NCBI GenBank assembly: GCA_965261395.1
Contig: OZ253462.1
Coordinates: forward strand, 5,760,001 to 5,824,000
Length of the DNA stretch: 64,000 nt
DNA from: Candidatus Latescibacterota bacterium
GTDB lineage: Bacteria; Latescibacterota; UBA2968; UBA8231
Direction of reading: 5' to 3'
Position 1 is the first letter of the stretch. Each line of letters opens with the position of its first letter. Shown piece after piece: positions 3,063-59,237 of this stretch. The translations under genes were made by a program, and so were the position numbers. Below the pieces are notes generated by a model. The model saw only the letters and a program-made list of their open reading frames with translations, did no database searches and was not told where the DNA came from.

Positions 3063-3095
3063 GTATTCACTCTTTCCTCCTTGGCTCGCTACGCC

Positions 3096-43863: not shown

Positions 43864-44008
43864 CTAGATCGTCGTCGCCAAACCTCCCCGTCAACGCGGA
43901 TATCTGTGCCGGTGAATCTGGCCGCTCGTTGCGATTGCGACTGTGCATCAAGAGACGTACCTTCGTTTCGCATAAATAGCATCTAGCGGCCGTTACCCGG
44001 ACTAATTG
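43864..44008 (+). repeat. Unit A: SDR 3'-end copy, promoter and partial attI-like site
   Basis: 43864-43915 matches the reverse complement of the last codons of SDR 58431-59237; TTGCGA(43935)-N17-TACCTT(43958); ends TTACCCGGACTAATTG. Confidence 0.9.
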
Positions 44009-44035
44009 AATCAGGAATGCAGAGGATAATGTGAT

Positions 44036-44650
44036 ATGTCGCTGGGAAAGGTCACTTGTTTTATAACGCGTAGCTTGGACGGTCGAAAGCACTTTCTCCT
44101 ACTAAAGCACCCCTACGCCGGCAATCAAATACCTGCCGGGACGGTGGAAAAGGGAGAATCCTTTGTCGCCGCGGCACTCCGGGAGGCCCGCGAAGAAACG
44201 GGTCTAGCCGCATTGAATGTTGTCGCGGAACTTTTGTCGGAACGGGAGAAGCTACCTCCCAACACAGCCGTCATCCAGAAGACTTCCACTGTATACTCTC
44301 GTCCAGACACTGGCAGTTTCGATTGGGTCACGATTCGAAGAGGTATTCGCGTTGACACCCGGGAAACTGAAAACGGTTTCGTGCAAATCAATTATGCAGA
44401 AAAAGAGTCGCTCGGTTCGGATAGGATCTCGTTTCAAATAACTGGCTGGATACCACAAGATGCTCTGACGACCGCTGTTGAGCGTAAGCACTATCACTTA
44501 AGTTGCGCAGTAAGTGATGAGCTTGAGTGGGAAGTCTTTTCTGATCACCACAAGTTTGTCCTAATGTGGCATCCGTTGACCGAAGATCCCAAATTGCAGG
44601 AACCATTTGGGGAGTGGTTCGGCTCCATCAAGGAGCATCTCGTTGATTAG
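44036..44650 (+). CDS. NUDIX hydrolase (gene cassette)
   Basis: Nudix box GTVEKGESFVAAALREAREETG; followed by an attC site. Confidence 0.85.
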   Translation: MSLGKVTCFITRSLDGRKHFLLLKHPYAGNQIPAGTVEKGESFVAAALREAREETGLAALNVVAELLSEREKLPPNTAVIQKTSTVYSRPDTGSFDWVTIRRGIRVDTRETENGFVQINYAEKESLGSDRISFQITGWIPQDALTTAVERKHYHLSCAVSDELEWEVFSDHHKFVLMWHPLTEDPKLQEPFGEWFGSIKEHLVD

Positions 44651-44667
44651 CTAGACAGATCAACTTC

Positions 44668-44750
44668 AGCTAACACGGCACCCCCGGCTCGGGCCTGACG
44701 ACCCTCGACCCAACCTGCTTTGCAGGTTCGTGGATCGACAGCCGTTAGAA
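44668..44750 (+). repeat. attC site
   Basis: AGCTAAC ... GTTAGAA ends with internal inverted repeats (AACCTGC/GCAGGTT), just after a stop codon. Confidence 0.75.
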
Positions 44751-44815
44751 GAAATGGGGGAAAAGCATCAGCGTATAAGCAACATATCACCGCAATGAAG
44801 TAGAAGGAGTCTTCC

Positions 44816-45924
44816 ATGAATAGCAAGACTAGTATCGTAGATGAGTTTTTGCTTAAAGGGCTTATTGGTATGAGCCGAGCAACCAGTAAGAATCGTATGT
44901 CCGGCCATCCAGCGGCTGCGATGCTGGCTGCATATTTTTTTTGTGCTGAGAATGCCCTCTCAACCGAAGTTCAGGTCAAAGTCTATGATCTCGTGAAACG
45001 CATGGTCAACTCAGAGTCGATGTGGTTCAGCCGGGATGGGGAATCTTCAACCAATGAGATTCTTTTTTCGACCGAACTAGATCAGAGACCAAACGCGGAT
45101 CTAATACCATCTGTTGCCGCTGCACTTGAGCCAAGTATCACCGAATGTCGGGATTCAGGACACAATACTATCTTCGCGTCCTTAGAAGCCGTCTGAAAAC
45201 CCCCTGTCGGGCTGTTTTTCGGGTGGTCAAGCGATCTAGGCGTCGAGCGTTTTTCATAGGGCGAGACGCCCTCGATCCCAGCGGCTTGGAGTCAAAGCAG
45301 AGATCGAAACCCTAGTTTTCAGACGGCTTCTTAGCTCTAAAGGCACTACATGCTGCACCACAGTATGCATTTCCTGCGATTATAGAAGGTATCAATGACT
45401 TGCTCAAAGCTTTTGAGGGACAGGGACCGGGATGGGCACCTGTACCAGGTAATGAGAAATTAGCAGACCCTCGTGAGTTGTCAGTGGCTCAAGAACTGGT
45501 CGATCATCCCTATGAGAGCTATGTCGATATGATCGATGCGATATCCCGCTATGTCGTACCAGACAACTTCACCAAAAGAGGCGTTGGTGGACCGATCCAT
45601 GTCATAGATCATGCCGTAGCTCTATTGGATCTGCAGACATTGGGGTATACTTCATTGGCGCATAAAGGGATGGCAGCTCATCAGCAACATATTGAGTTGT
45701 GGTTGAGCCTTCCGAAATTTCCGCAAGCTGAAAACAGTTACTCCGTGAAATCGGAGCACGATCCTCGCACAGCGGACTACTGGCGTGAGGAAATAACCAT
45801 AAAAGATGGCGGTGGCGATGAACATCGGTTGAAGATTCTCTATGGCGCTCATCGTTTTGCAGATTGCATTACAGACGTAAACAAACGTCGTAGTTTTCTT
45901 GAAAGTGCGGCATACCTGTTTTGA
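44816..45924 (+). pseudogene. Hypothetical cassette gene (about 319 aa) split by a MITE
   Basis: Removing 45185-45333 gives the continuous frame ...GHNTIFASL|ALKALHAAPQY...LLKAFEG, joining ORFs 44816-45196 and 45400-45924. Confidence 0.85.
45185..45330. mobile_element. 146-bp MITE
   Basis: Perfect 16-bp TIR GAAGCCGTCTGAAAAC / GTTTTCAGACGGCTTC, TTA target duplication, no coding capacity. Confidence 0.9.
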
Positions 45925-45969
45925 AAATGTGCCTAACTTGCGTGGGCGACAGACCTGATTGATTCAGGA

Positions 45970-46305
45970 GTGCTGGATGGTCAGATCCCCAAAGGCGGCA
46001 CTAGAAATGTCCTGCGGGATGAACTGGCAAGCATACGAGCCGACCTGCCACCAGAAGACGTGGTGTTCACCCACGGGGATTATTGCCTTCCCAACGTCAT
46101 GATCCTCAAAGGCCACCTGAGTGGCTACATTGATTGGGGCTATGCAGGAATAGGAGATCGATATCTCGACTTTGTCGCCGCGTACAACACCATTCGCAGA
46201 AATCTGGGCGGAGAGTGGGTTCCCTTGTTTTTCCGGGAGTATGGGCAAGAATTGGATCAGGCCAAGTTGAGCGTGTATCAAAGGATCCATGACCTCGTAG
46301 ACTAA
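45970..46305 (+). pseudogene. C-terminal fragment of an APH(3')-like aminoglycoside phosphotransferase
   Basis: VFTHGDYCLPNV, GYIDWGYAGIGDRYLD; N-terminal lobe absent. Confidence 0.8.
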
Positions 46306-46311
46306 GAGGGA

Positions 46312-46535
46312 TTGAGACAAATCGCAAATTGTGACATTTTTTTTCACTGTAAAGCGTGGCGTCTCGCCGCCCTTTAGATCGTCGTCGCCAAAACCCCCCC
46401 GTCAACGCGGATGTCCGTGCCGGTGACATCTGGCCGCTCGTTGCGATTGCGACTATGCACCAAGAGACATACCTTCGTTTCGCATAAATAGCATCTAGCG
46501 GCTTGTACCCGAACTAATTGTTCGGGTACAAGCAG
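46312..46535 (+). repeat. Unit B: copy of 58367-58484 (SDR 3' end and downstream DNA), promoter and attI-like site
   Basis: 46312-46427 aligns with 58367-58484; TTGCGA(46447)-N17-TACCTT(46470); palindrome 46501-46533; G/TTACAC at 46535. Confidence 0.92.
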
Positions 46536-46601
46536 TTACACGAAAGCGGCGTGCCGGGTTTGCACCATTCTTAGATCCCGTGCCCCAACGGGACTGATAC
46601 C

Positions 46602-47366
46602 ATGGGAATCAATGAGGTGGCAGATTCTGAATATGACAAGATAGGTGATTTCTATCTCAACTGGCTGGATAGGAATGTTCCGGATAGGAATAGGCGTATC
46701 CAGCCCTCGGTAGAAATCATGCTGACTATGCTGGGCGATGTCCAAGGGATCAGTATATGTGACTTGGGATGCGGTGAAGGGTATCTGTCTCGCATCCTAG
46801 CGAGCCGAGGTGCTCTCGTTACGGGTGTTGATATTTCACAGATGCTGCTGCGGCATGCAAAGGAGCATTCTGATGACCACGGCATCACCTATGTCCTGGA
46901 CGATGCACAATCGCTGAATCAGGTGTCCGACGCCAGCATGGATGCCGTTATTTGCAACATGGCACTCATGGATATCCCTGACCTAACGGCAACATTGTTT
47001 AATGTCCGTCGGGTACTTGTCGACAATGGCAAGTTCATCTTCACAATTCTTCATCCGTGCTTTTTCACTCCGTTCAATGCAGAGAATCCACCGGAGGAGT
47101 TTGACGAAGAGGGAAATTTCAAGGCATTGCGTGTTTCAAGGTATGGCCTTGAAGGCAAATGGTACTCCGATGGAATCGGGATGTGTGGCACGCTTGGTAG
47201 CCACCACCGAACGCTTTCAACGTACTTCAATACCTTGACCAGAAGTGGATTCCAACTTGTCGAGATCTCTGAACCGCTTGATTCTGTAGCAGACGCGGTG
47301 GAGAGGCGTCGAGAAAGCATAGTGCCGACACTCTTGATTGCCAAGGCAATCGCCCTGCCATCATAG
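46602..47366 (+). CDS. Class I SAM-dependent methyltransferase (gene cassette)
   Basis: CDLGCGEG, GVDIS, DDAQ, NMALMDI, HPCF. Confidence 0.88.
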   Translation: MGINEVADSEYDKIGDFYLNWLDRNVPDRNRRIQPSVEIMLTMLGDVQGISICDLGCGEGYLSRILASRGALVTGVDISQMLLRHAKEHSDDHGITYVLDDAQSLNQVSDASMDAVICNMALMDIPDLTATLFNVRRVLVDNGKFIFTILHPCFFTPFNAENPPEEFDEEGNFKALRVSRYGLEGKWYSDGIGMCGTLGSHHRTLSTYFNTLTRSGFQLVEISEPLDSVADAVERRRESIVPTLLIAKAIALPS

Positions 47367-47406
47367 GCGTTTTCGTGTATATTTCGGGCGTTGCAGAGCC
47401 GCAATT

Positions 47407-47495
47407 GTGTAACAGCACGGTTTGCGCTGCGGCGCTGACGCGCCTTGGCCTTCGGCAACCTGCTGCACGGGTCCGCAAGCCGTAAAACGTTATGT
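47407..47495 (+). repeat. attC site
   Basis: GTGTAAC ... GTTATGT; R'' is the exact complement of GTTACAC at 46535. Confidence 0.85.
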
Positions 47496-47532
47496 GCAAT
47501 TGCAGTCCCGGAGCGCTGCCTAAACCCAAATC

Positions 47533-48317
47533 ATGGGAACTCTAATGCCCCGCCCTGATCTCAAAACTACTTTCAATACCATTGCCTTGCTCTACGACGA
47601 AGTGAGGCCCGGATACCCTGATGAGCTTGTCAGGGATGTTTTGGACCTCTCCGGAATGGATAGAAGCGGAAAAATCCTGGAAGTCGGATGTGGAACCGGA
47701 CAGGCTTCGAGATTATTTGCCACCCTCGGTTGCGAAATGACCTGTTTGGATATTGGCCAAGATTTGATCGAGGTTGCGAAGGCGCGACTCAACAATTACA
47801 AGAACGTTCGCTTCGTCCTGTGCCCTTTCGAAGATTGGGACTCGGCTAGCAAGTTTGACCTTGTAATCTCCGCGACTGCATTTCGCTGGGTGGTCCAAGA
47901 GTCAGATTCATTAGAGCCCGTGACACCCTGAAGGCTAGGGGATCATTGGCCATCTTCTCCAACTAGCACGTAAGAAGAGACGAAGGTTTCTTTGCGGAAG
48001 TCCAGGAAGTTTATAGCAAGCATTATGTAGTTTCAGATTCCCCTCGGGATCCCAGTACTCCGACGACATCAGAGTCCCCAGAACCCGGAACTACCGCTTT
48101 TGCCGATCCTATCCACCGAGTGTACGCGTGGACAGCGAACTATTCTGCGGAACAGTACATCAAACTCATTGGCACCTATTCTGACCACATCGCGCTGCCC
48201 GAATTCAATCGCACGCACCTATTTGACGGTATAGCTGACCTGATAAACAAGAACTACGGAGGATCGATCACCAAGCACTACGAAACTGCTTTAGCATTTC
48301 GCAGGAAGAAAGCCTGA
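47533..48317 (+). pseudogene. Class I SAM methyltransferase, frameshifted or with stops
   Basis: YDEVRPGYP, LEVGCGTG, FDLVISATAF then a premature stop; C-terminal part (YIKLIGTYSDH) at 48120-48317. Confidence 0.75.
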
Positions 48318-48392
48318 TTGAAGTTTAGAGCGAACCCAAGAGTTCTTCGCCAAGCGCGCAGCCAGATGGGAGTATTTCGGGAGTTGATTTGA

Positions 48393-49373
48393 GTGGATAA
48401 GCGATCTCTGCAAACTCTGTCAAAAGACGAAAGAACAGCAGCATTGCACGAGCTGGCCGAAGCCAGTCTTGCTGACTTCGATTTGACGGGAGGCTCACTC
48501 ATGTTGCTGCAGGACTTAGTGAATAGCTCATTCCGGGTTCAACATGACAGTGGACAGTGGTATCTGCGTATTTACAATCCCGACAGGCATAATACATCAG
48601 CTATCGAGTCTGAACTCTTGTTCTTGGAAGCTCTCACCAAAGGTGGCTTTCCAGCGCCTCGGCCGTTGCGTAAGCGCAGTGATGGGATGCTTTGGGTGGC
48701 GTCACAGAGCCCGGTTGTGGACGCAATCCGAATATCAGTATGCTCTTGGCTCCCGGGTGAGATATTGCAGCATGACAAGACACCACGGCACTATGCCAAC
48801 TTAGGAACCGCGTTAGCAGGACTCCACGAGTTCTCCGCCAAATGGAATCCATCCGAGGGGTTCGTACGTCCCCGTTGCGATAGTGAAGGTGTATACGGCA
48901 ATCACGGTGCTTCAGGATCGAAAGTCATGCGAGGCTGGGACAACATTGACAGTCCTCTTCGCTCGGATCTCGAAGATGCGAAGAGAGCACTTGAACAGGC
49001 CGAGAACGCTATTGGAACAGATTGTGGTCGCTACGGTTTGATCCACGCTGATCCAAGTTTCGGCAACGTCCTGTTTGATGGCGAAATACCATACCTGATC
49101 GATTTCGATGATTTCGGGTACGGCCACTATGTCTTCGATCTCGCAGTTGTTCTTGCTGGCGCCTGGGGCAAGCCTGATTTCGCAGAGAATCGCGCGGCTT
49201 TGTTCGAAGGATACGGGCAAATACGAGAACTGTCGCAGGCAGAAATGGGGGCATTGCCCGCAGCCATGGCAGCGCGAGTGGCATCGCTCATTTTCTGGGC
49301 TGCGGCTCAGGCATCACAGCATCCATGGATTGAAGGGCAGTGGCAACGCCTCAAGGAATACATGGAATCGTGA
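48393..49373 (+). CDS. Phosphotransferase (APH/type II homoserine kinase fold)
   Basis: LGTALAGLH, GLIHADPSFGNV, LIDFDDFG..HYVFDLA. Confidence 0.85.
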   Translation: MDKRSLQTLSKDERTAALHELAEASLADFDLTGGSLMLLQDLVNSSFRVQHDSGQWYLRIYNPDRHNTSAIESELLFLEALTKGGFPAPRPLRKRSDGMLWVASQSPVVDAIRISVCSWLPGEILQHDKTPRHYANLGTALAGLHEFSAKWNPSEGFVRPRCDSEGVYGNHGASGSKVMRGWDNIDSPLRSDLEDAKRALEQAENAIGTDCGRYGLIHADPSFGNVLFDGEIPYLIDFDDFGYGHYVFDLAVVLAGAWGKPDFAENRAALFEGYGQIRELSQAEMGALPAAMAARVASLIFWAAAQASQHPWIEGQWQRLKEYMES

Positions 49374-49384
49374 TGGAAGAAAGG

Positions 49385-49443
49385 CACTAAAAGCCAGACG
49401 CACTCGTCGGGCTTACGGCCGAGCGCGATCTGCAGCCTTAGGA
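49385..49443 (+). repeat. Possible degenerate short attC
   Basis: CACTAAA ... CTTAGGA ends enclosing an imperfect hairpin CAGACGCACTCG / CGAGCGCGATCTG. Confidence 0.4.
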
Positions 49444-49492
49444 GCCGGTGGAGCGGCACTTCCAGCCCGAAGTAGAGGTAGAAATCCACATC

Positions 49493-49578
49493 GCTTAACA
49501 CCGTGTTTTCGCTGCTCCGCCTACGGCGGCTTGGCCTTGGCAATCCCTTCGGGGTTCGCAAACCCTGAAACGTTACAG
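49493..49578 (+). repeat. attC site
   Basis: GCTTAAC ... GTTACAG; shares the CTTGGCC..GGCAA core with the other copies. Confidence 0.85.
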
Positions 49579-49601
49579 GAACATGAAACCATAAAGCACA
49601 G

Positions 49602-50864
49602 ATGCTTATTAGGAACGGAAACGGTCATAAGGAAGGGCGGCAACGGGGTATTTATAGATATATAGTTTCAATAATATCTATTTTGTGCTTCACCAGCGGC
49701 GTTATGGCCGATGCTCCCAAGATTGGCTTTTGGGAAAAGCAGCGTAAGGGAGCTAATCAGCAAAACGAGCGACATCGTCCTGAGTGGTACAGGGCGGCAG
49801 GTGAACTGGGATTGGATTATGTGCGGATTTTACCCGATGCATGGCCCGCCGATAATAGAGACTTCCTAATCGGCAACGCAGATAATTTCGAAGCAATCAA
49901 TGAGACCGATCTAGCCCTGTTGATAGAAGCACTCAATGAAGCCGAGAGCAATGGTATCAAAGTTGTCCTTGCGATGGCCAGCTTGCCCGGTGGACGCTGG
50001 AAGCAGCTGAATGAGAACCAAGATGATGGCCGGCTCTGGCGTGACGAAAGCTACCATAAGCAAGCCTTCAATTTCTGGCGTCAGTTAGCAATGCGTTTGG
50101 AAAAGCATCCTGCAATCGTAGCTTACAACCCTCTCAATGAACCACATCCAGAGAAGGTATTCGGTTTTGCAGAACCGGACGAGAATTTCAGCCAATGGTT
50201 TCAGGGCATCCAGAATACGCCAGCTGACCTCAACCGATTTAACCAGCGGATGGTCGAATCCATCCGTTCAGTAGACGCAGATACGCCCATCATGCTCGAT
50301 GGCTGGTTCTATGCCGCTCCTCAAGCGTTCGACTTCAATCGCCCTGTAGATGATGACAAAGTGTTGTACGCTTTTCACAACCCCGGTCCGTGGCAGATGG
50401 TGACTTATCGAGCCAATAAGGACCGGTACGCCTATCCAGACCGAGTTCCGAAGTGGTGGAACGGTCCTGTAGAGTCGTGGACTATCGATCGTCTTGCGGA
50501 GGAGATCAACGCGGTGCAGCGGTTTTCTGAGCGATATGAGATACCTTCTCACCGAATCATAGCTTCAGAATTCTGGTACGACCGCCGGCTCGAAGGCGCT
50601 GCGGCCTACCTGAGCGACCTAATAGAAATCTATAACAGCCAAGGTTGGCATTGGTCGTTTTACGCCTTTCGCGGTGATGGATCATGGTCGGGGTTAGATT
50701 ATGAAATCGCATCGAGTCACAAGATGGGTTGGCATTATTGGCAAGCTGTCGAACAGGGCAAAGATCCCGAGCAATTCAAGCCACGAGGAATGAACCCCTT
50801 GTGGAAAATACTACAACGCCAGTTTCGCAAAAACAGTAAGAGTCATGACTTCATTCCCCCGTGA
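49602..50864 (+). CDS. Glycoside hydrolase family 5 (cellulase-like), probably secreted
   Basis: GLDYVRI, AYNPLNEP (acid/base), YAFH, IIASEF (nucleophile), WSFYAF; start codon uncertain. Confidence 0.82.
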   Translation: MLIRNGNGHKEGRQRGIYRYIVSIISILCFTSGVMADAPKIGFWEKQRKGANQQNERHRPEWYRAAGELGLDYVRILPDAWPADNRDFLIGNADNFEAINETDLALLIEALNEAESNGIKVVLAMASLPGGRWKQLNENQDDGRLWRDESYHKQAFNFWRQLAMRLEKHPAIVAYNPLNEPHPEKVFGFAEPDENFSQWFQGIQNTPADLNRFNQRMVESIRSVDADTPIMLDGWFYAAPQAFDFNRPVDDDKVLYAFHNPGPWQMVTYRANKDRYAYPDRVPKWWNGPVESWTIDRLAEEINAVQRFSERYEIPSHRIIASEFWYDRRLEGAAAYLSDLIEIYNSQGWHWSFYAFRGDGSWSGLDYEIASSHKMGWHYWQAVEQGKDPEQFKPRGMNPLWKILQRQFRKNSKSHDFIPP

Positions 50865-50883
50865 TCGAGAATCTACGTCACCG

Positions 50884-51682: not shown

Positions 51683-51770
51683 CACCGTGTTTGCACTGTG
51701 GCGCTTCGCGCCTTGGCCTCCGGCAACCCCTCGACAAGCTTGGGGTTCGGGCACGGCGAGAACGTTATCC
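51677..51770 (+). repeat. attC site
   Basis: CTATAAC ... GTTATCC; overlaps the upstream stop codon; same repeat family. Confidence 0.85.
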
Positions 51771-51822
51771 GCAATGGAAAAAACCAACTCATAAAAGCCT
51801 CTGAGGGAATGCCTTGATCGAC

Positions 51823-52686
51823 ATGAATGGCCCTGCATACGATAGTGGGGCCCCCAACGAAGTGCTGAATGCCGCCAGCAAACACCATCTGTGGACGGGC
51901 AAGGGAGGTCTGTCGGTCAAGTCATTCTCAAATGGCACGGCAAAGTATGAGATCGACAACCACGCGATCGAAGTCGATGAGCATTCATATCTGATTCTGA
52001 ATTACGGACAGGAATACACGGTATCTATCGACTCTCCTTCGATTGTTGGGTCATTTTGTGTCTTCTTCAGGGATGGATTTGCTGAGGAGGTCTACGCATC
52101 CATCAATTCTAGAGCTATCAAGCTTCTTGATGATCCAGCACGTCAGTCGCGCCGGTTGGAATTCTTCCAGACCACTCGCCCGCAGGATCGCGTTCTGACT
52201 CCGACTCTGAGCCGGTTCAGATCAGAGTACTCACTGCGAAGTGAAGAGCTTGGATGGGTCGAGGAGCAGATGCACGCGGTGATGGTTGGACTTCTGAGTG
52301 CACATCATCAGGTTTTGAAGGAAGTAGAGACAGTTGAGGCCGTTCGTGCGGCGACGCGAAAGGAGCTTTACCGTCGCATCCACATGGCTCGCGACTATAT
52401 CTGTTCCTCCCTCTCGGAGCCGATCTCCCTCGATGCGATGGCTAAGGTGGCGTGTCTCTCCTCGAATCACTTCCTGCGGACATTTCGCCAGATAGTCGGT
52501 CAGAGCCCACACCAGTATCTTGTTATGAAGCGACTGGAGCGAGCCGCCAGGCTATTGGAGACTACAGATCGGACTGTGACAGAGATTGCCCTAGAAATCG
52601 GATTCGCAAGCCTTGGTTCATTCAGTTGGCTTTTTCGGCGGCACTATGGTCTCTCGCCGAGACAATTCCGCAGAACAAAAAGGTGA
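51823..52686 (+). CDS. AraC family transcriptional regulator
   Basis: ACLSSNHFLRTF, SPHQY, VTEIALEIGFASLGSFSWLFRRHYGLSP. Confidence 0.92.
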   Translation: MNGPAYDSGAPNEVLNAASKHHLWTGKGGLSVKSFSNGTAKYEIDNHAIEVDEHSYLILNYGQEYTVSIDSPSIVGSFCVFFRDGFAEEVYASINSRAIKLLDDPARQSRRLEFFQTTRPQDRVLTPTLSRFRSEYSLRSEELGWVEEQMHAVMVGLLSAHHQVLKEVETVEAVRAATRKELYRRIHMARDYICSSLSEPISLDAMAKVACLSSNHFLRTFRQIVGQSPHQYLVMKRLERAARLLETTDRTVTEIALEIGFASLGSFSWLFRRHYGLSPRQFRRTKR

Positions 52687-52770
52687 TTTCAGAGAAGTCT
52701 GCGGCCGAGGAATTCTGTAGTTTAGGTTCGGTAGGAGCAGCTATTGAACCCACACCACAGGAGGTCCAGA

Positions 52771-53163
52771 ATGACGCAGCATAGTGGATTCGGTCTATCG
52801 ACCATAGGGCAAATATCTGTCACCGTGAAGGAACTCGACAGGGCAGTTATCTTCTACCGAGATCAACTGGGAATGCAGTTCCTGTTTCGGGTGCCGAACA
52901 TGGCGTTCTTTGATTGCTCAGGCGTACGCCTCATGTTGAGTATCCCGGAGGGGCAGTCTGACGATATCCATTCCTCTGTTCTGTATTACAGAGTTGACGA
53001 CATCCATGACGCCTACCGGGTTTTGAAGGGTAGGAACGTGCCGTTCGATGGAGGGCCTCACAAGATTGCTGATCTTCAAGACCACGAGTTGTGGATGGCG
53101 TTCTTTCGAGATAGCGAGATGAACATCCTTGCACTCATGGCTGAGAGGCCCCACGACGAATAG
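52771..53163 (+). CDS. VOC/glyoxalase family protein
   Basis: IGQISVTVKELDRAVIFYRDQLG, MAFFRDSEMN; RBS AGGAGG. Confidence 0.9.
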   Translation: MTQHSGFGLSTIGQISVTVKELDRAVIFYRDQLGMQFLFRVPNMAFFDCSGVRLMLSIPEGQSDDIHSSVLYYRVDDIHDAYRVLKGRNVPFDGGPHKIADLQDHELWMAFFRDSEMNILALMAERPHDE

Positions 53164-53181
53164 CCTCAGATGAGGTGCTGA

Positions 53182-54000
53182 TTGGATCGAATAGCGACCT
53201 ATTACAACAGAAAGAACGAGAGCCAACGTCTCTTCAGTGGCCGGGGCGAGCTAGAATTCCTCCGCACTAAACAGATCATAGAGCAGTTTCTCCCCGATGA
53301 AACTGGTTTGTCGATAGTAGACGTTGGTGGAGGATCTGGACCGTACGCGTTCTGGCTTGCCGAGAAGGGGCACAAGGTCGCCTTGTTTGATTTGATGCCT
53401 AACCACGTTGAAGAGGCCGTGTCGATCAACAAGAAAGCACCAAATCCGCTCTCTCGGATCGAAACTGTCGATGTACGATCTCTCGAACTTGAGTCTCAGC
53501 AGTATGATGTAGTCCTACTTTTGGGACCCATGTACCATCTCACCGATGCAAACGAGCGCAGCCTAGTGCTACGGAAGGTCGCCGATTGGCTTGCCCCCAA
53601 CGGTGTCGGGTATGTGGCATATATCTCGAGGTTTGGGTCGATGTTCGATGGTTTCATAAGTGGCTTATTTGAGGATCCGGAATATCTGGATATTGTGCGG
53701 CAAGATTTAGCAACAGGTGTCCACCGTCCCAACAAGGACAATACCAGATACTTTACTGATGCCTATCTCCACCACCCGGATGAGATCGAACGGGAAGCTG
53801 AGGAGGCACATTTACAGATCGTGGATCACATCGCCGTCGAGGGTGTGGCGTGGTTATGGCAGAATTTTGATCAGATTTGGTCGGATCCGCGACAACGGTC
53901 TATCATGCTCGAGATGATAGACCGAACCGATCGAGATCGCTCTCTCTTGGGTGCGAGTGGCCACATTCTTCTTGTCGTGAAGAGGCGAGACATCGAATAA
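53182..54000 (+). CDS. Class I SAM-dependent methyltransferase
   Basis: VDVGGGSG, YDVVLLLGPMYHL. Confidence 0.88.
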   Translation: MDRIATYYNRKNESQRLFSGRGELEFLRTKQIIEQFLPDETGLSIVDVGGGSGPYAFWLAEKGHKVALFDLMPNHVEEAVSINKKAPNPLSRIETVDVRSLELESQQYDVVLLLGPMYHLTDANERSLVLRKVADWLAPNGVGYVAYISRFGSMFDGFISGLFEDPEYLDIVRQDLATGVHRPNKDNTRYFTDAYLHHPDEIEREAEEAHLQIVDHIAVEGVAWLWQNFDQIWSDPRQRSIMLEMIDRTDRDRSLLGASGHILLVVKRRDIE

Positions 54001-54083
54001 CAGCACGGCTTGTGCTGCGACGCATTCGCGCCTTGGCCTTCGGCAACCTGCTACGCTGGTTTGCAAACCGTGAGACGTTATGA
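53995..54083 (+). repeat. attC site
   Basis: GAATAAC ... GTTATGA; near-identical to the 47407 copy; overlaps the upstream stop codon. Confidence 0.87.
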
Positions 54084-54161
54084 GGCATGGGAGCTTTAGG
54101 GACGATTGGTGGTGCCAGAGGGCACTAAGACCGTGGTAACTACACAGAGGATCAACCATCG

Positions 54162-54542
54162 ATGGAGACTGAACTTACTGCCGAAGATCGGGAACTCTTA
54201 CAGCGCTTAGAAGAAGAGTTGTGGCGAGAGGAAACGCGTTTCGACGTATCGAGAATGGAGGAAATCATCGCCGAGGACTTCTTCGAGTTTGGCAGGTCTG
54301 GGCGTATCTACCAGCGCGCCGACACGCTTGCGGTACCTTCAACACCCATAGAAGCGGTGATTCCACTTCCAGCCTTTGATGCGCGTCTTCTTTCTGAAGG
54401 TGTCGCCCAGGTAACGTACAATAGTGTCGTCACCTACGGCGAAAATATCGAGGAGGCACGAAGGAGCTCAATCTGGACGCGGTCGTCTGGTGGTTGGAAG
54501 CTGAGATTCCATCAAGGGACCCCATTTTCGAGTGACGATTGA
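54162..54542 (+). CDS. DUF4440/NTF2-like protein
   Basis: DFFEFGRSG, RSSIW....WKLRFHQGT. Confidence 0.85.
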   Translation: METELTAEDRELLQRLEEELWREETRFDVSRMEEIIAEDFFEFGRSGRIYQRADTLAVPSTPIEAVIPLPAFDARLLSEGVAQVTYNSVVTYGENIEEARRSSIWTRSSGGWKLRFHQGTPFSSDD

Positions 54543-54592
54543 GCGGGCTTCTCAATTTGTTCTCAATCTTCGGTAAAAGTGCAGAAGTATAG

Positions 54593-56140
54593 ATGAGTGA
54601 ATCACTGAAACAGTCTCTGGGGGCCTTATGCAGTGGGCTGGCTGCCCTTTGGAAGGAGAGTTCGTTCTCAACAGGCTACAGAAGTCCGTTCGAGACTCCT
54701 TATGAAGTAATTACGAGGGCCGATGACAACGCGGCCCTGATGCCAGTCAGTGGTCGCGCCATTCGAGGTTCCACCGGAGTTGAGGTGTCGAGGAGGGAGA
54801 AGAGGCCGTCAAAGGAAAAGGCCACCGAGGATCTGATCACCGACTCTTATGGGCAAGAACAGTCGTTTCACCCGGAAGGGTTAAATCAACGCCTTAGAGA
54901 AACCCGAGACGCAGTTGCAGCCTTTGGTAGAGCAGTCGATGCCGACGTGCCCCTCGGCTACCGACTGCGCCAATCTTTGGGTTATAAGACATGGTCGGCG
55001 AGTCAGTTCGCCGATCTAGATCGAGCAGGGTGGAACTTGGAGCTTGGATGCCTCTTTGCGCTGAGAAAGAGGCTGGCTCGGAGTCTAGTTGCACATGGGT
55101 TCGATCCTGCCAGCCGAGACCAGTTCGAAGGGTGGTTGGCAGTGGAAGAGGAGATCATTCAACATCTTCAAGACCTTCGAACTCTGGACCGCTATGAGTA
55201 CGAAGTACAGATCTTTCTAAATGGACCGCCCGCTGATTTCGAGGGCGAAGCCTCGCTCGTTGATCTTGTGCAAGGTGAAGAAACCATTTCGGTGAGAGTC
55301 TGCTATGCGTCAGATCAGCTTGTGAGCCATCTCGTCGAGTACGAGCACCAGAAAGTTCCTGGTTACGAAAAGATCAATACTGTCTTGCGCTACAGGATTT
55401 CGCTCCCGGTCGAGGTCGGGGAAGAACCGTATCTTCAGGCCTATCCTAAAGCATCGGAGGTAGGAGCTCTCCTCTTGGACGGCCTGAGGCTCCTGCGCCC
55501 AGGCGATGACATTGGAATACTGGCACTGGAAATCGTGGCGGTAGATGACTATGCTCCGACGATTCGTAAAACGTGGGCCGATAGGTTCCAGACCGAACTC
55601 GCTAGGTTCTATCCAAGGAGATTCGACTTCAGGCCACCACAGTGCTCGGTCCTTCAAGAGAAAGAAGTGACAAACCTAGGGACACTCGTGTCGCTTCTAG
55701 TAGGAAAAAGTGGTCGTTCCCGGTCCATCCTCCAAGCACGCAGGAGGCTAGCAAATAGCATCGACCGGTATGCACCTGATGATCCGGAGAAGCTCATCGA
55801 GTACGCGATAGCGCTGGAGTCTCTTTTTCTTGACGATTCTGATAGTAGAACCGAGCTTTCTTACAGACTTGCTCTTCGCGCTGCACGGCTCTTGGAGGAG
55901 GATCTCGAATCGCGCCGCTCTTGTTTCCATACCATACGAGATCTCTACAAGTTTAGGTCCCGCATAGCACATGGTGGTAGTCTGGAAGAGCTGAAGCCCG
56001 TCGAACAGAAACGGCTCGAGAGCGTTCTACTCAGATGCCCCAGTATTGTGTCGAGGTCGATTCGTGCCCTATTGGAACGTGGCCCGAGTGCTGTTGGCAA
56101 GAAGCCTGTCGATTATTGGCAGGAGCTCGAACTGGGGTGA
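54593..56140 (+). CDS. HEPN (Apea-like) domain protein
   Basis: C-terminal IALESLF..ELSYRLALRAA..LYKFRSRIAHG (RxxxxH). Confidence 0.7.
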   Translation: MSESLKQSLGALCSGLAALWKESSFSTGYRSPFETPYEVITRADDNAALMPVSGRAIRGSTGVEVSRREKRPSKEKATEDLITDSYGQEQSFHPEGLNQRLRETRDAVAAFGRAVDADVPLGYRLRQSLGYKTWSASQFADLDRAGWNLELGCLFALRKRLARSLVAHGFDPASRDQFEGWLAVEEEIIQHLQDLRTLDRYEYEVQIFLNGPPADFEGEASLVDLVQGEETISVRVCYASDQLVSHLVEYEHQKVPGYEKINTVLRYRISLPVEVGEEPYLQAYPKASEVGALLLDGLRLLRPGDDIGILALEIVAVDDYAPTIRKTWADRFQTELARFYPRRFDFRPPQCSVLQEKEVTNLGTLVSLLVGKSGRSRSILQARRRLANSIDRYAPDDPEKLIEYAIALESLFLDDSDSRTELSYRLALRAARLLEEDLESRRSCFHTIRDLYKFRSRIAHGGSLEELKPVEQKRLESVLLRCPSIVSRSIRALLERGPSAVGKKPVDYWQELELG

Positions 56141-56194
56141 GCGAGCCCTCCACCGATCGGAATGGGCACGGACGACCACTCGACGGCAATCAGC

Positions 56195-56352
56195 TCAGAT
56201 CGTCGTCGCCAAAACCCCCCGTCAACGCGGATGTCCGTGCCGGTGAGAAGCTGCTCGTTGCGATTGCGACTATGCACCAAGAAACCTACCTTCGTTTCGC
56301 ATAAATAGCATCTAGCGGACGTTACTCGAACTACTTGTTCGAGTACAAACAG
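56195..56352 (+). repeat. Unit C: SDR 3'-end copy, promoter and attI-like site
   Basis: Same unit as A and B; TTGCGA(56264)-N17-TACCTT(56287); TACTCGAAC-N5-GTTCGAGTA. Confidence 0.9.
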
Positions 56353-56467
56353 ATATGTGAAACAGAAAAAGAAACGGAATATAGACGGCATATCTGCCTG
56401 TATACTAGAGGTTGGCTACATATTCGTTGTTCAATCACGAGTTATGCAATGAGACGGAGGTCTAAAC

Positions 56468-57388
56468 TTGAACGCTACCCGGTGGGAATTTGGTTTCTTG
56501 CCAGAATCTACTTCCGCCAACTTTGACGGATGGCGGATAGAACCCCTTGATGATTTCGAAGGGACTCTAGAAAAGTGGAACCAGTTGTCTGATCCCCAAG
56601 GCTGGGTTCTTCCTCCGATCATCGAGCGGGTCAAGGTCAAACGAATTTCCGAGGGAGAAGAGGTCGAGGACGTTGTACCCAATACACGTCGTTCGGTAAA
56701 ATTCTGGCGTATTCCTCCGAGCCACTCTCTCATATATGAGGGTAGGGAGCCACCCGCTCAGGAACCCACCAAACCTGGAGCACCCTACTTCATCGTCCAG
56801 TGCTTGGGAGCGATCAAAGGCTGTGAGCTTCAGCTCTCTAATTGGTGGGTGAGTGGGAAAAAACGTCTGAAGCCACTAGGCTTCCTTCATCCCGTTGACG
56901 GTGCTCTGAACCACTGCCTATCCATGGCCTATGCTTGGTACGATGGACAGGACGATCATAGTAGAAAAGTGATCAGCAGTAGCCTCTTCATACATTCGCA
57001 CAGCGAGTCCTACGAATTCACATGGGAACGCTTCCTGTGGCAACACGCAGCCTTCGAGGGGTGTTGCCACTTGGCGAAGAAAGTGCATGGGATGAAAGCC
57101 GGAGGTCGAAGGAACCGTTTTCAGGTCTTTGCGGATCACTTCGGCCTCCAATCCGACCCAGACCAATTCAGGATATTTAGCCAGATCAGGAATGAGCTCG
57201 TTCACGAAGTAATGTGGGGAAATCAAGTGCCAGGATTTGGTGGCGAGGGTCAACCTTGGAACCAGACCATCTACTTGAGCCACTTCACAACTCTTGCTCT
57301 TTTAGCCGTGATGGATGTAAAGACACCAAGTCTCCATGTGAATTGGAATACAAGAAGTCGCATGGTCCTTGAAACTCCGACCAGATAG
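56468..57388 (+). CDS. Hypothetical protein with HEPN-like RxxxxH motif
   Basis: ERFLWQHAAFE ... IRNELVHE. Confidence 0.6.
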   Translation: MNATRWEFGFLPESTSANFDGWRIEPLDDFEGTLEKWNQLSDPQGWVLPPIIERVKVKRISEGEEVEDVVPNTRRSVKFWRIPPSHSLIYEGREPPAQEPTKPGAPYFIVQCLGAIKGCELQLSNWWVSGKKRLKPLGFLHPVDGALNHCLSMAYAWYDGQDDHSRKVISSSLFIHSHSESYEFTWERFLWQHAAFEGCCHLAKKVHGMKAGGRRNRFQVFADHFGLQSDPDQFRIFSQIRNELVHEVMWGNQVPGFGGEGQPWNQTIYLSHFTTLALLAVMDVKTPSLHVNWNTRSRMVLETPTR

Positions 57389-57403
57389 GAAACGATGTCT
57401 GTC

Positions 57404-57531
57404 AACCAAGCGGCCTTCTTGCAGCAGCCGAGCCCCAACAAGGCGTCGCTCTTCTAATTGGGCACGGGTCAAATGAGTAGGAGCCCAAATCATAAGCGCA
57501 AAACGTAAACCAATTTTAGTGAAAGTCAATA
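57404..57531 (-). mobile_element. IS630-family left-end remnant
   Basis: Begins TA-TTGACT on the minus strand; ATG 57493 encodes MIWAPTHLTRAQLEERRLVGARLLQEGRL, resembling an IS630 transposase N-terminus, then breaks off. Confidence 0.6.
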
Positions 57532-57557
57532 AGAGCCACCTTGCGCGAGGGGTCGTG

Positions 57558-58055
57558 CTAAGTGAAGTTAGAGTTGGCTGTCTCCTGCTCCATGATTTTC
57601 TCTCTCTTTTTTATAATATCTTTTTCTATTTCTGTAAGCGCCAAATGGATTAGATCCCTCATTCTTATTATCCATTCTTTTTTCCACGCAACCTCGGACA
57701 CAGACAAAATAGAATATGCTTCACACATATCAAAAGAGGCACGCATTTTTTCTGGGCAGGAATGGGCATAAAATTTATGCCTAAAATCGCGCACAACTAT
57801 CTTATGCATCTCCTTTTTTCTCTTTATATAGTTTTCACTAAGTCCCTCAAGGGCACGATAATAAGAAACAACTGAGGCAGTTATCAATGACTCAAAAATG
57901 ATCCGATCCTCTTCCGTCCCACAGTAAAGTACATTGTGATCCATTCCTCTTTTTAGTATGACACTTATATAAGAGTGCGCTTTCCTCAGATTCATGATTG
58001 CCATTTCAAGACTAAATATACTTTCTGCAATCTTGGATTTATTTGCTTCGCCCAT
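57558..58055 (-). CDS. AT-rich hypothetical protein, HEPN(AbiU2)-like
   Basis: SVVSYYR ... RHKFYAH; visibly much lower GC than its flanks. Confidence 0.6.
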   Translation of the reverse strand: MGEANKSKIAESIFSLEMAIMNLRKAHSYISVILKRGMDHNVLYCGTEEDRIIFESLITASVVSYYRALEGLSENYIKRKKEMHKIVVRDFRHKFYAHSCPEKMRASFDMCEAYSILSVSEVAWKKEWIIRMRDLIHLALTEIEKDIIKKREKIMEQETANSNFT

Positions 58056-58173
58056 CTAATTGTCCTTGCTATTATAAGCGCGGGAGACCAGTCGCCCAGC
58101 CTCCCGCCACAGATTAAGCAATCCGATTGGAGTGCGCGGATGTCCGAGACCATATTCCTAGCCGCCTGACGAC

Positions 58174-58404
58174 TTAGTGCAGAGCAGCGTCTAGCGTTGC
58201 TTCAACCGGCGGTGGGAATTCGACTTTGTAAAAGCGGTCGGCATCAAATGCGTAATCTTCGCCACTTTCATCCACCATGCGAATGTACCCGTGAGCAGCC
58301 GCCTCCTGATCGGGAAGTACGCGATACACTTTTCCGACTTCGAGCGAAGCCTCATAGCCTTCATTGTTGAGACAAATCGCAAATTGCGACGTTTTTTTCT
58401 TCAC
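58174..58404 (-). CDS. Small conserved hypothetical protein
   Basis: FAICLNNEGYEASLEVGKVY..IRMVDESGEDY. Confidence 0.65.
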   Translation of the reverse strand: MKKKTSQFAICLNNEGYEASLEVGKVYRVLPDQEAAAHGYIRMVDESGEDYAFDADRFYKVEFPPPVEATLDAALH

Positions 58405-58430
58405 TGTAAAGCGTGGCGTCTCGTCGCTCT

Positions 58431-59237
58431 TTAAATCGTTGTCGCTAAAAATCCCCCGTCAACGCGGATGTCCGTGCCAGTGACGAAGCCGCTGGCTGCG
58501 TCCGACGCGAGGAACACCGCCGCGCCGACTAGCTCTTCGGGGCGGCCAAAGCGATCCATGGGCGTGTGGGAGAGGATTTGTTGGCCGCGCTCGGTTGGGG
58601 TGCCGTCTTCCTCAAAGAGCAAGCGGCGGTTTTGCTCGGCGGGGAAAAAGCCCGGGGTGATGGAGTTGACCCGTACGCCTTGGTCGGCCCACTCGCGCGC
58701 GAGGAATTGCGTCAGGTTCACGACGGCCGCTTTAGCCGCGGAGTACGCCACCACCCGCGAAACCGGCAGGTGGGCGGCAACCGAGGCGATGTTGATGATG
58801 CTACCCCGGCCCCGTGCGACCATGGCCGAGCCGAATTCTTGGCAGGGCAACAGCGCGCCAGCCCCCAAGTTCAGGTCGAAACAACGCTGCCAATCGTCGG
58901 TTGTTATCGCGGCAAAGTCTAGGTCGTCGTTCAGGGTCACCTGCGGCTGATTGCCGCCGGCTGCGTTGAGTAGCACGTTGACGGGACCCAATGCCGCGAC
59001 GACCGCTTCATGGGCTGCCTTGAGCGATGCTTTGTCCGTGGCGTCGCAGGCGGCGAAAACGCCCGTGCCTCCTGCTGCCTCTATTGCCGCTACTCGCTTA
59101 TTCCCCCGGTCGTGGTCCCGCCCCAACACTGCTACAGAGGCTCCGGCCTCGGCCAATCCCTGGGCCATCGCCCCGCCCAATACGCCGGTCCCACCGATGA
59201 CTGCCGCTACTTCGCCGCGCAAATTCCATTGACTCAT
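58431..59237 (-). CDS. SDR family oxidoreductase (mannonate/gluconate dehydrogenase-like)
   Basis: GGTGVLG, NAAGGN, YSAAK, VNSITPGFFPAEQN, VTGTDIRVDGGF. Confidence 0.9.
   Translation of the reverse strand: MSQWNLRGEVAAVIGGTGVLGGAMAQGLAEAGASVAVLGRDHDRGNKRVAAIEAAGGTGVFAACDATDKASLKAAHEAVVAALGPVNVLLNAAGGNQPQVTLNDDLDFAAITTDDWQRCFDLNLGAGALLPCQEFGSAMVARGRGSIINIASVAAHLPVSRVVAYSAAKAAVVNLTQFLAREWADQGVRVNSITPGFFPAEQNRRLLFEEDGTPTERGQQILSHTPMDRFGRPEELVGAAVFLASDAASGFVTGTDIRVDGGFLATTI

Follow-up and report, generated by a model that had tools for sequence, protein, structure and literature searches.

The locus raises the question of how three promoter- and attI-like units, each preceded by a fragment of a host gene and followed by cargo, came to stand in one array, and whether any integrase serves them. 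It lies in a window of 64,000 nt (the whole stretch of DNA analysed) of a 6.55-Mb, single-contig genome (G000), which was compared with the 30 other genomes of its genus (31 in total; about 17 of the 30 are single contigs) and with relatives from sister genera. We consider it probable that the region represents CALINs (cassette arrays that lack an integrase) at a position that is variable throughout the genus and flanked by two convergent host genes, where orphaned, lineage-specific integron heads sit atop integrase-less cassette arrays, were stacked via fragments of an SDR gene, and are now decaying.

Borders, units and junctions

The 3' end of the FAD gene on the left border was present in nine of ten relatives' loci, 0.46–11.4 kb from the SDR gene, and 16 of the 18 genus genomes sampled have an ortholog (80–99% identity) of the latter, which forms the right border. 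The region of a 76-aa ORF is conserved beside the SDR gene in seven of ten relatives; in G018 and G006 a copy lies to the left of the FAD gene, G006 having none beside the SDR gene. The borders, the SDR copies and the units are as follows:

42617–43858, plus strand: FAD-dependent oxidoreductase gene (geranylgeranyl-reductase-like; Pfam FAD_binding_3, GGR_cat), conserved host gene and left border of the hotspot
43864–43915, minus strand: SDR 3'-end copy A (last ~17 codons), 5 nt after the FAD stop codon, frame broken by a 1-nt deletion
43916–44008, plus strand: unit A, promoter-like boxes intact, palindrome cut after its loop
46312–46427, minus strand: duplicate of the right end of the array, comprising the start of the 76-aa ORF, a terminator-like hairpin and SDR tail B (in frame); 90–94% identical to 58367–58484
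46428–46535, plus strand: unit B, intact; boxes 46447–46452 and 46470–46475, hairpin 46505–46529, junction G46535/T46536
56195–56246, minus strand: SDR 3'-end copy C, frameshifted
56247–56352, plus strand: unit C; boxes 56264–56269 and 56287–56292, hairpin 56323–56345, junction CAG/ATA, not CAG/TTA
58174–58430, minus strand: 76-aa ORF (58174–58404) and palindromic terminator-like hairpin (58377–58389), downstream of the SDR gene
58431–59237, minus strand: intact SDR gene (Pfam adh_short), from which the tail copies derive; right border of the hotspot

The initial annotation had described a unit of ~145–160 bp at 43864, 46374 and 56195, with the SDR 3' end in each copy. Repeat analysis bore this out and resolved each copy into an SDR 3' end and ~110 nt of further sequence, with a 50-nt SDR-tail repeat at 43866, 46377 and 56197 (58434 in the real gene) and an ~113-nt repeat at 46433–46545 (B), 43921–44033 (A, 75% to B) and 56250–56362 (C, 87%), each then followed by co-oriented cargo. 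Chance does not account for the three units, and an assembly artefact that placed strain variants of one locus in tandem is extremely improbable. Such an artefact would fit the co-occurring variants, the DNA contigs with alternative joints (e.g. one of depth 43.8 linking 45937 to 58376), and the breaking of contigs at units, but the pairwise identity among the units is only 76–86%, their cargo is wholly different, and tandem units recur in the independently assembled G063, G065, G009, and G012 and at 1489–1499 kb in G000. Furthermore, DNA contigs from two runs, each of a different study, which break inside repeats and do not bridge units, match 46473–56240 (a second-study contig that begins within unit B and reaches tail C) and 56289–58188 without a difference.

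The TTGCGA-N17-TACCTT arrangement was likewise recovered as annotated: the boxes are identical in unit A (43935–43940 and 43958–43963), B, and C, with spacers that differ at a few positions. Across 44 copies, TTGCGA is exact in 37 and TACCTT in 31, the variants being single-base differences, and the boxes, unlike the flanks, are conserved in six genera. The palindrome of unit B reads GTACCCGAAC-TAATT-GTTCGGGTAC, that of unit C contains a compensated C>T/G>A pair, and the attI-like palindrome of unit A, previously noted as partial, consists of the left half only and ends at 44008. Stem positions 2–10 pair in 23–26 of 26 distinct copies, in the states C-G, T-G, and T-A. Comparison with G009, G011, and G012 shows that a ~30-nt deletion between two AATTG repeats fused unit A to the NUDIX cassette; in G010, tail A and unit A are both lost. 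Unit B is nearest to units of G009, G065, G063, and G004 (88–89%, vs. 81% to A and 86% to C).

This conservation makes it conceivable, if tentative, that the unit is mainly kept as an expression element (a putative promoter plus a 5'-leader hairpin) serving the genes downstream and that its recombination role is historical only. A terminator-like hairpin ahead of unit B and RNA-library contigs covering 46497–48265 and other cassettes fit this reading, and the conservation of the unit across genera and its retention in 21 integrase-less genomes of the genus, is better explained by a recombination-independent function than by a dead relic. However, a generic sigma-70 consensus scan did not pick up the boxes, the −10-like box matching three of six consensus positions; contigs cannot reveal a transcription start, DNA can contaminate RNA libraries, and one RNA-library contig stops before it reaches the boxes, at 46428. 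A promoter alone would also leave the attC arrays and the sharp G/TTA boundary unexplained. In 35 aligned copies, conservation extends to AAGCAG and ends after GTTA, the usual end being AAGCAG/TTA with cassette sequence from there on; the G/TTA boundary is found in 27 of 44 copies and a GATA variant in six. At unit B, G 46535 is followed by TTACAC (46536–46541), which together form the exact complement of GTGTAAC (47407–47413) in the R'' box of the first attC, as had been stated. The sequence after the junction resembles that following the R' box of attC sites; for example, TTATGTGCAATTGCA occurs both after a core site in G009 and after the attC at 47489.

Distribution of the unit and its recombinase neighbours

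The unit is present in 22 of the 31 genus genomes and also occurs in five sister genera; across the family, 28 of 76 genomes contain it, and G000 has nine copies at five loci. A search for intI beside the unit elsewhere, as the initial annotation had proposed, identified a divergently oriented gene for an IntI-like tyrosine recombinase 75–135 nt from the unit in eight sister-genus genomes (G039–G046; eight of nine ortholog loci examined). Co-oriented attC arrays follow the unit at 13 of 14 sister-genus loci (10/10 and 3/4), the 14th reaching a contig end. Together, the adjacent recombinase and the arrays after the unit suggest that the unit is an integron head of the Pc/attI type, specific to this lineage, its position and boundary pointing to a putative attI role. 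Two G000 units (at 568780 and 1489653) retain ~100 nt of the sister-genus intergenic region between recombinase and unit. The heads in this genus would thus be the former attI/Pc of the sister-genus recombinase, whose gene was probably lost here, with several copies of the head remaining per genome.

The sister-genus enzyme is a short form without the IntI-specific insertion of ~40 residues, and scores 231–240 bits on TIGR02249 (cut-off 265); its gene is broken in G040, G041, G042, G043, and G045. As two studies treat this insertion as necessary for attC recombination (PMC4889954; 10.1101/2022.02.06.479319), the recombinase might not be a cassette integrase. No canonical IntI was found in G000, where the best TIGR02249 score is 82 bits (cut-off 265); PF00589 gave four matches, three of them over the cut-off and all Xer-like or weak, and tblastn with the short integrase returned Xer genes only, with no short IntI-like gene or remnant. 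Neither the canonical nor the short gene is present in 28 of the 30 other genus genomes, the exceptions being one split canonical intI and one 51%-identical short paralog without a unit.

The earlier proposal of integrase-less integron heads anchored on the SDR gene and served in trans is therefore upheld in part: the head is homologous to the sister-genus units and stands here without an integrase, but its SDR anchor does not hold (see below), and an integrase acting in trans is unsupported in the single contig of G000. That each head also counters a fall in expression along its array, as the same proposal has it, would presuppose active promoters. A trans-service architecture may exist in a sister genus, as G046 has one intact integrase gene plus five further unit matches, and the match examined (L111) has no recombinase within 1.5 kb upstream.

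Cassettes, stacking and decay

The cargo between the units comprises the following segments:

44009–44744, plus strand: NUDIX cassette; ORF 44036–44650 (Pfam NUDIX), attC 44669–44751 (E 4.6e-11), G/TT at 44744/44745
44745–45962, plus strand: cassette with an ORF split (44816–45196, 45400–45924) by a MITE at 45179–45334; truncated attC from 45931
45964–46305, plus strand: C-terminal fragment of an APH-family phosphotransferase gene (Pfam APH, profile positions 147–237 of 239)
46536–47489, plus strand: cassette B1; methyltransferase 46602–47366 (Pfam), attC 47405–47496 (E 2.3e-21)
47490–49571, plus strand: cassette B2; broken methyltransferase (47533–47931, 48120–48317), APH-family gene 48393–49373, attC 49494–49579
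49572–51763, plus strand: cassette B3; GH5 cellulase-family gene 49602–50864, APH-like gene 50978–51682, attC 51678–51771
51764–54077, plus strand: cassette B4; AraC-family regulator, glyoxalase-family gene, methyltransferase, attC 53995–54084
54078–56194, plus strand: DUF4440 gene 54162–54542 and 515-aa ORF 54593–56140, no attC found
56353–58173, plus strand: module C cargo; 306-aa ORF 56468–57388 (plus) and A+T-rich 165-aa ORF 57558–58055 (minus), no attC found

Searches with profiles built, for attC and unit alike, from G000's own copies gave five attC matches in the window, none of them in module C or in 54078–56194. The attC sites are canonical: in an alignment of 12, the R''/R' plus L''/L' scheme gives 74.9% paired cells, compared to 29–39% with the partner slid, and the L helix is 82% paired, with both sides changing in seven of ten pairs. 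The split ORF 44816–45924 has no Pfam or NCBIfam match, and the MITE interrupting it is an inverted repeat with other copies elsewhere in G000. The module C ORFs have no family match and, except for a 126-nt repeat, no match in the 30 other genus genomes.

Cassette order varies among genomes at 90–99% identity. The NUDIX cassette also follows a core site in G009, G011, and G012; ~177 nt are added within B3 in G011, G063, and G065 (at 51030/51031); the AraC–glyoxalase segment of B4 is missing or located elsewhere in G063, G011, and G002; and in G010 the DUF4440/515-aa-ORF segment directly joins the 76-aa-ORF region, without unit C. One RNA-library contig contains an extra A after 47892 in the B2 methyltransferase, and an RNA-library contig joins the attC at 44747 to the cassette starting at 47490 exactly at GTTA. 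The differences in order and this joint indicate integrase-type exchange somewhere in the population and count against a decay-only reading. They would also agree with live, non-autonomous platforms at whose heads an off-chromosome or other-cell integrase (plasmid, phage, other strains) still shuffles cassettes, as would the intact unit B with a first cassette whose start is complementary to its own R'' box, the layout in G046, and the units conserved in the 21 integrase-less genomes. Nevertheless, we regard this as unlikely, given that neither the 6.55-Mb contig nor most of the genus holds an integrase gene, that the sister-genus orthologs are often broken, and that heads and arrays carry deletions; homologous exchange of whole segments can also yield cassette differences. 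Signs of decay include the truncation of unit A, its deletion in G010, and a replaced segment with the loss of one attC in G065. Under the preferred reading of orphaned heads, each sub-array would begin with a head that combines promoter-like boxes directed toward the cassettes with a conserved hairpin or palindrome and with the insertion point AAGCAG/TTA; the arrays would today undergo nothing but decay, with boxes that may still be transcriptionally active. Core sites on the 3' side of cassette-like segments in G009, in G012, and at 1493603 and 1499033 in G000 are not predicted by plain attI x attC insertion and also count against the preferred reading.

The SDR tail, taken by the initial annotation as an integral anchor, is missing from six copies of the unit or core, which lie at four further loci of G000, and where an SDR fragment is attached, its length varies between genomes from ~10 to 320 nt. 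It is very improbable that the units act as att sites for integrative islands that are directed at the 3' end of the SDR gene, restore it each with its own tail copy, and accrete in tandem by a dedicated integrase. Tail copies do flank each module, the leftmost abuts the FAD gene like the original gene end, and insertions at this position in other genomes are flanked by target direct repeats (G003 ~29 nt, G006 ~70 nt, G012 ~98 nt). Yet the modules and their surroundings contain no integrase, the variable repeat lengths and breakpoints are unlike a site-specific crossover, and at four other loci of G000 the unit stands without any SDR sequence. Homologous recombination has left footprints instead: the 118-nt copy of the right end before unit B (46312–46343 is 94% identical to 58367–58398 and 46337–46427 is 90% identical to 58394–58484, including 65 nt downstream of the SDR gene), SDR fragments of 270–320 nt ahead of the units in G063 and G065, and a partial duplication of the SDR body in G011. 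The three heads were thus probably stacked when duplicated 3' fragments of the SDR gene recombined homologously, through unequal crossing-over or single-crossover insertion of other lineages' DNA, and not by site-specific capture.

Comparison with known integron types

Sedentary chromosomal integrons have the layout intI – Pint/Pc – attI – cassettes, and their attC sites form one sequence-related family. Similarly, the sister-genus unit has a divergent IntI-like recombinase gene on one side and the first cassette on the other, cassettes start after G/TT, and the attC sites here form one sequence-related family; in contrast, the sister-genus recombinase lacks the IntI-specific insertion, the head is multi-copy, and the recombinase is absent in G000. 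With tandem accretion at the 3' end of a target gene, the array shares gene-3'-end copies that separate modules and an intact gene, but there is no element-borne integrase, the repeat lengths vary, and units at other loci lack the repeat. The attG/SALIN cassettes, as described in a preprint by Loot et al. (10.1101/2022.09.11.507474), also reside at chromosomal sites without a neighbouring integrase and are perhaps expressed from nearby promoters. However, attG sites are given there as very diverse, unlike att sites, whereas one conserved ~40–110-nt site recurs at every array start here.

The closest resemblance is to CALINs, which in the text of Cury et al. 2016 (PMC4889954) have at least two co-oriented attC sites and no intI nearby, half of them lying in genomes that lack IntI, as does this one. 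The cargo of methyltransferase, APH, glyoxalase, NUDIX, and unknown genes is also CALIN-like. According to the same text, attI is unknown for most integrons and was hence not searched for in the CALIN survey. The arrays here differ in keeping a recognisable head of promoter-like boxes and an insertion point, which is multi-copy and occurs three times in one array. Judged by their sequence, they are probably CALINs that retain multiplied attI-type heads.

Probable integron heads in the window, the genome and the family

The unit of about 110 nt, with TTGCGA-N17-TACCTT boxes, a hairpin and an insertion point at AAGCAG|TTA, is part of the repeat that the initial annotation had read as an integron platform. 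It was recovered by a repeat finder as a 113-nt family with three copies (A, B and C), in agreement with alignment and whole-genome BLAST. The copied 3' end of the SDR gene (the SDR tail) upstream of each unit likewise forms a 50-nt repeat family, with a fourth copy in the gene itself. The features of the window are:

Left border: FAD-dependent oxidoreductase gene, convergent with the SDR gene
43866, 46377 and 56197: SDR tails upstream of units A, B and C
43921-44033: unit A
46433-46545: unit B
56250-56362: unit C
58431-59237, minus strand: SDR gene, the right border, with the fourth tail copy at 58434 within its 3' end
Cargo between the FAD and SDR genes: NUDIX, three methyltransferases, APH-family genes, a GH5 enzyme, an AraC regulator, a glyoxalase, DUF4440 and several family-less ORFs

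As described initially, the two boxes are the same in all three units and the spacers vary. The palindrome of unit B, GTACCCGAAC-TAATT-GTTCGGGTAC, is perfect and that of unit C is compensated; unit A is cut after the loop, which comparison with three relatives (G009, G011 and G012) traces to the loss of about 30 nt flanked by two AATTG words. G010, whose SDR gene is the most similar among the relatives, has lost both tail A and unit A through deletion. An Rfam scan of the window returned five tRNAs only, with no match at the units or the attC sites.

Elsewhere in G000, the genome to which the window belongs, units without an SDR tail lie at 2860996, 1489653, 1493603, 1499033 and 568780, together with a core at 1520465 and a fragment of the promoter part at 2752971. 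The tail, which had been proposed as an integral anchor of the platform, is thus incidental to it. The unit is present in 22 of the 31 genomes of the genus and in 28 of the 76 genomes of the family (genera g1 and g11-g14), to which a profile search adds G039 of genus g10. In public collections, the core pattern, exact or degenerate, was found in seven stretches, all in MAG records titled like those of the relatives (Candidatus Latescibacterota or Gemmatimonadetes), and in none of the metagenome contigs. At one G000 locus, an IS982-family transposase gene (C1 1488611-1489615, L101 4611-5615; 151 bits against a cut-off of 130) stops 37 nt short of the unit at 1489653, and three stacked unit or core copies follow one another at spacings of 3.9 and 5.5 kb, with multi-gene segments in between.

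Thirty-five aligned copies are conserved through the hairpin to AAGCAG, and conservation ends after GTTA, leaving a conserved left side and a variable right side. Among the 44 copies reaching the junction, 27 read GTTA, six GATA, four ATTA and seven otherwise, so that the unit has the fixed G|TT joining point of an attI site. The sequence to the right of the junction resembles that to the right of the attC R' boxes. The promoter-like boxes are conserved, with TTGCGA in 37, TACCTT in 31 and the exact N17 spacing in 22 of the 44 copies; they were not among the promoters listed by a consensus scan. The hairpin is maintained, stem positions 2-10 being paired in 23-26 of 26 distinct copies (states C-G, T-G and T-A). 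Since wobble intermediates are about equally frequent on the top (12) and bottom (9) strands, the folding strand cannot be read from them.

A divergent recombinase beside the unit in sister genera

The initial annotation had asked whether the unit stands next to an integrase-type gene elsewhere, and it does, in the classical Pc/attI position, in eight sister-genus genomes. We fetched ten unit loci from four sister genera (G040-G042 and G044-G046), and all ten units are followed by co-oriented attC matches, mostly three to six, with two at L112 and one at L111. A tblastn search with the canonical IntI of the family revealed a gene immediately adjoining the unit and encoded on the other strand in G040, G044, G045 and G046, and orthologs of this recombinase at five further loci extended the same layout to G039, G041, G042 and G043. 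The gene diverges from the unit at eight of nine ortholog loci, the exception being a partial second copy in G046. The homologous unit therefore occupies the attI position beside an integrase gene in G039-G046 (eight of nine recombinase loci), with some 75-135 nt between the start codon and the first aligned position of the unit. Overall, eight genomes of five sister genera have the gene in divergent orientation to the unit and the attC array behind it. In seven of them the array comprises four to six attC sites, and G039, the eighth, reaches its contig end immediately past the unit. No SDR or FAD homologs adjoin the sister-genus integrons. Two G000 units, at 568780 and 1489653, retain about 100 nt of the intergenic region between unit and recombinase. 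The gene, hereafter the short recombinase, was located at:

L106 6213-7148, plus strand: short recombinase, intact ORF
L110 217-1104, minus strand: short recombinase, intact ORF
L104, L107, L113, L114, L115 and L117: further copies of the short recombinase

The best family match of the short recombinase is the integron-integrase model TIGR02249, at 230.7 and 239.7 bits, below the cut-off of 265. The match falls into two stretches, the first listed one ending at model position 177-179. Aligned with seven canonical IntI of the family, the protein has gaps (31 and 10 residues) exactly opposite their ..RKYP..W.WQ.VFP.. stretch. The protein thus shows neither of two marks of IntI, a TIGR02249 match above the cut-off and the additional domain close to patch III. 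Its identity is 40% with canonical IntI and 33% with the G000 XerD, and a tree of 28 proteins groups it with canonical IntI against three Xer proteins (97/99), with the branching order inside this group unsettled and the Xer proteins on long branches. It also belongs to a very large family, mostly named XerD or tyrosine recombinase, with at least 7,900 proteins at E <=1e-30 among 8,000 scored. The gene is whole in G046 and G044. Breaks or truncations affect it in G040, G041, G042, G043 and G045, and in one further genome it is cut by a contig end.

The initial annotation further supposed that an integrase serves the heads in trans, and for G000 this lacks support, since neither an IntI nor a short recombinase gene was found there. 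In its single 6.55-Mb contig, TIGR02249 yielded no more than 82 bits (cut-off 265), and PF00589 only an XerC-like, an XerD-like and a third Xer-like gene plus one weak match, none of them near the arrays; the nearest is the XerC-like gene at 3063-4052 of the window. Nowhere in G000 does an intI gene with the IntI-specific additional domain stand beside an array, and in the window the SDR fragment occupies the place beside the unit where intI would be expected.

Other readings of the unit and of its partner were considered and rejected. Canonical IntI exceeds the cut-off in nine of the 76 family genomes, and eight family loci around canonical or IntI-like genes contained no unit or attC-profile match. 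None of the 10 genomes with a canonical IntI match is among the 27 other genomes that match the unit, a comparison that is descriptive only, as the genomes are related and not independent. Among the 30 other genomes of the genus, the sole canonical intI is that of G014, which is split over two contig ends (L091, the end of C19, and L051, the start of C156) and looks frameshifted. The G014 integron shares only a 10-nt word with the unit and was probably acquired separately, as its array is A+T-rich and carries a different type of attC. The third Xer-like recombinase (G000 4226085-4227056) occurs as one copy per genome in 29 of the 31 genomes of the genus and in 60 of the 76 of the family, also where units are lacking, and is missing from genus g12, which has units. 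A dif-like sequence at C1 4223058, 3 kb from this gene, coincides with the cumulative GC-skew maximum, and the gene may encode a recombinase dedicated to the terminus, in addition to the XerC- and XerD-like ones. Finally, a reading of the unit as an IS200/IS605-type end finds in G000 just a 34-position Y1_Tnp fragment, distant from all units.

Cassettes, their turnover and the stacking of modules

Five attC profile hits lie within 44669-54084 of the window and more elsewhere in G000, all belonging to one family of 85-100 nt elements, so that the window holds clustered attC sites with no integron integrase nearby. Twelve aligned sites show the canonical scheme of outer R''/R' boxes, an inner L''/L' stem and a variable centre, which identifies the cargo as an integron cassette array. 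The AAC/GTT pairs are retained in 9-12 of the 12 sites, the L helix is 82% paired with changes on both sides in seven of ten pairs, and overall 74.9% of cells are paired vs 29-39% with a slid partner. A shuffle control was less decisive, the covariation score being reached by 33 of 500 shuffles. As had been noted from the sequence, the first cassette after unit B begins at G46535|TTACAC, the complement of GTGTAAC at 47407-47413, and this cassette, B1, matches its own R'' at 7/7 positions. Over six cassettes, a small sample, the start agrees with the cassette's own R'' at 10 of 18 variable positions, compared with 13 of 36 for non-cognate neighbours.

Several cargo genes have features of their own. 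Pfam, NCBIfam and PADLOC gave no family match for ORFs of 515, 306, 165, 76, 126 and 174 aa. The second methyltransferase gene is broken into two frames (47533-47931 and 48120-48317), and an RNA-library contig of a related strain has one additional A after 47892, within this gene. An element of about 155 nt at 45179-45334, with 20-nt terminal inverted repeats that are 95% complementary, interrupts an ORF and looks like a MITE; copies at 97-99% lie at G000 4106816, 4861736, 6364167 and 6523829, with weaker ones in other genomes of the genus. The cargo of unit C (56353-58134) consists of the 306-aa ORF and, on the opposite strand, the A+T-rich 165-aa ORF, neither matching a family; in 30 other genomes of the genus it was unmatched except for a 126-nt repeat, present also at G000 6146069.

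The array shows both decay and turnover. Its cassettes are found in other genomes in different orders, and G065 carries a nearly identical module B (unit B with its cargo; 97-99% identity) in which a different 266-nt segment replaces unit B and the attC at 47405 is missing. Sequencing runs were compared as assembled contigs. Those of two DNA runs from different studies match unique segments without differences and break in the repeats. Several cassettes are covered by RNA-library contigs, whose source strains are related (90-99% alike). One contig spans 46497-46829, from the hairpin into the first gene, and another links the attC at 44747 to the cassette beginning at 47490, exactly at GTTA. 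Such contigs give no transcription start and may derive from DNA in the libraries, and stretches they leave uncovered were not counted as silent.

The gap between the FAD and SDR genes varies within the genus from 458 bp (G003) to 11.4 kb (G009), with different contents, and the inserts are flanked by direct repeats of target sequence of varying length: some 29 nt in G003, some 70 nt in G006, and in G012 the end of the FAD gene together with the tail. The SDR sequence attached to the unit measures 54 nt in G000, G009 and G012, about 10 nt in G001 and G002, and 270-320 nt in G063 (twice) and G065. At unit B, 65 more upstream bases match the sequence just downstream of the SDR gene (46312-46427 against 58367-58484, about 90%), a left-flank duplication for which we found no counterpart at the other unit loci of G000. 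Units A, B and C are only 76-86% identical, and the closer counterparts of B are units of other genomes rather than A or C. We infer from the variable fragment lengths, the left flank of unit B, which repeats the right end of the array, and the divergence of the units that stacking proceeded by homologous recombination. An SDR 3' fragment would once have come to adjoin a head, and modules would later have been stacked through recombination between such fragments, probably with DNA of other lineages.

The sequence around the right border has peculiarities of its own. A palindromic hairpin with a T-run on the plus strand (58377-58389), between the SDR gene and a conserved downstream 76-aa ORF (58174-58404), is copied before unit B at 46322-46334 and could act as a bidirectional transcription terminator. 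The 76-aa gene has been moved or duplicated, as copies lie beyond the FAD gene in G018 and G006 (L031 12609-12845 and L035 5939-6175); G018 also retains one beside the SDR gene and G006 has none there.

Heads that probably outlast their integrase

Comparison between genomes supports the initial view of the units as integrase-less Pc/attI heads, and by its sequence the region is best described as a CALIN, an attC cluster without an integrase, with recognisable and multiplied heads. Tentatively, and with more doubt than confidence, we propose a family-specific integron lineage in which a domain-less relative of IntI would act as the integrase and heads of about 110 nt would have multiplied as satellite platforms, several to a chromosome and each with its own cassettes, served in trans by one integrase. 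In the genus of G000, the integrase would be gone and the platforms would persist, stack and perhaps act as promoters. That one integrase may serve several platforms in trans is suggested by the layout in G046.

In the accessible part of the literature, we met with no account of multiple or orphan attI sites, of integrases that lack the insertion at the head of attC arrays, or of integrons in this lineage. Supplementary Figure S1 of PMC4889954 gives the placement of 21 recombinases that lack the domain and were found close to attC sites; it may bear on whether relatives of the short recombinase have already been seen.

CALINs are usually described without heads, because attI sites are, to our knowledge, known for only few integron classes. 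The head described here can be recognised by comparison between genomes, occurs in multiple copies and appears to outlast its integrase, which offers a concrete path from a complete integron to a CALIN and a sequence handle for locating the starts of arrays. The more surprising lead lies outside the window, in the domain-less IntI relative that occupies the integrase position of the same system. The IntI-specific domain is held to define integron integrases; if the short recombinase is the cassette integrase, this domain would not be universally required, and profile-based surveys would undercount integrons.
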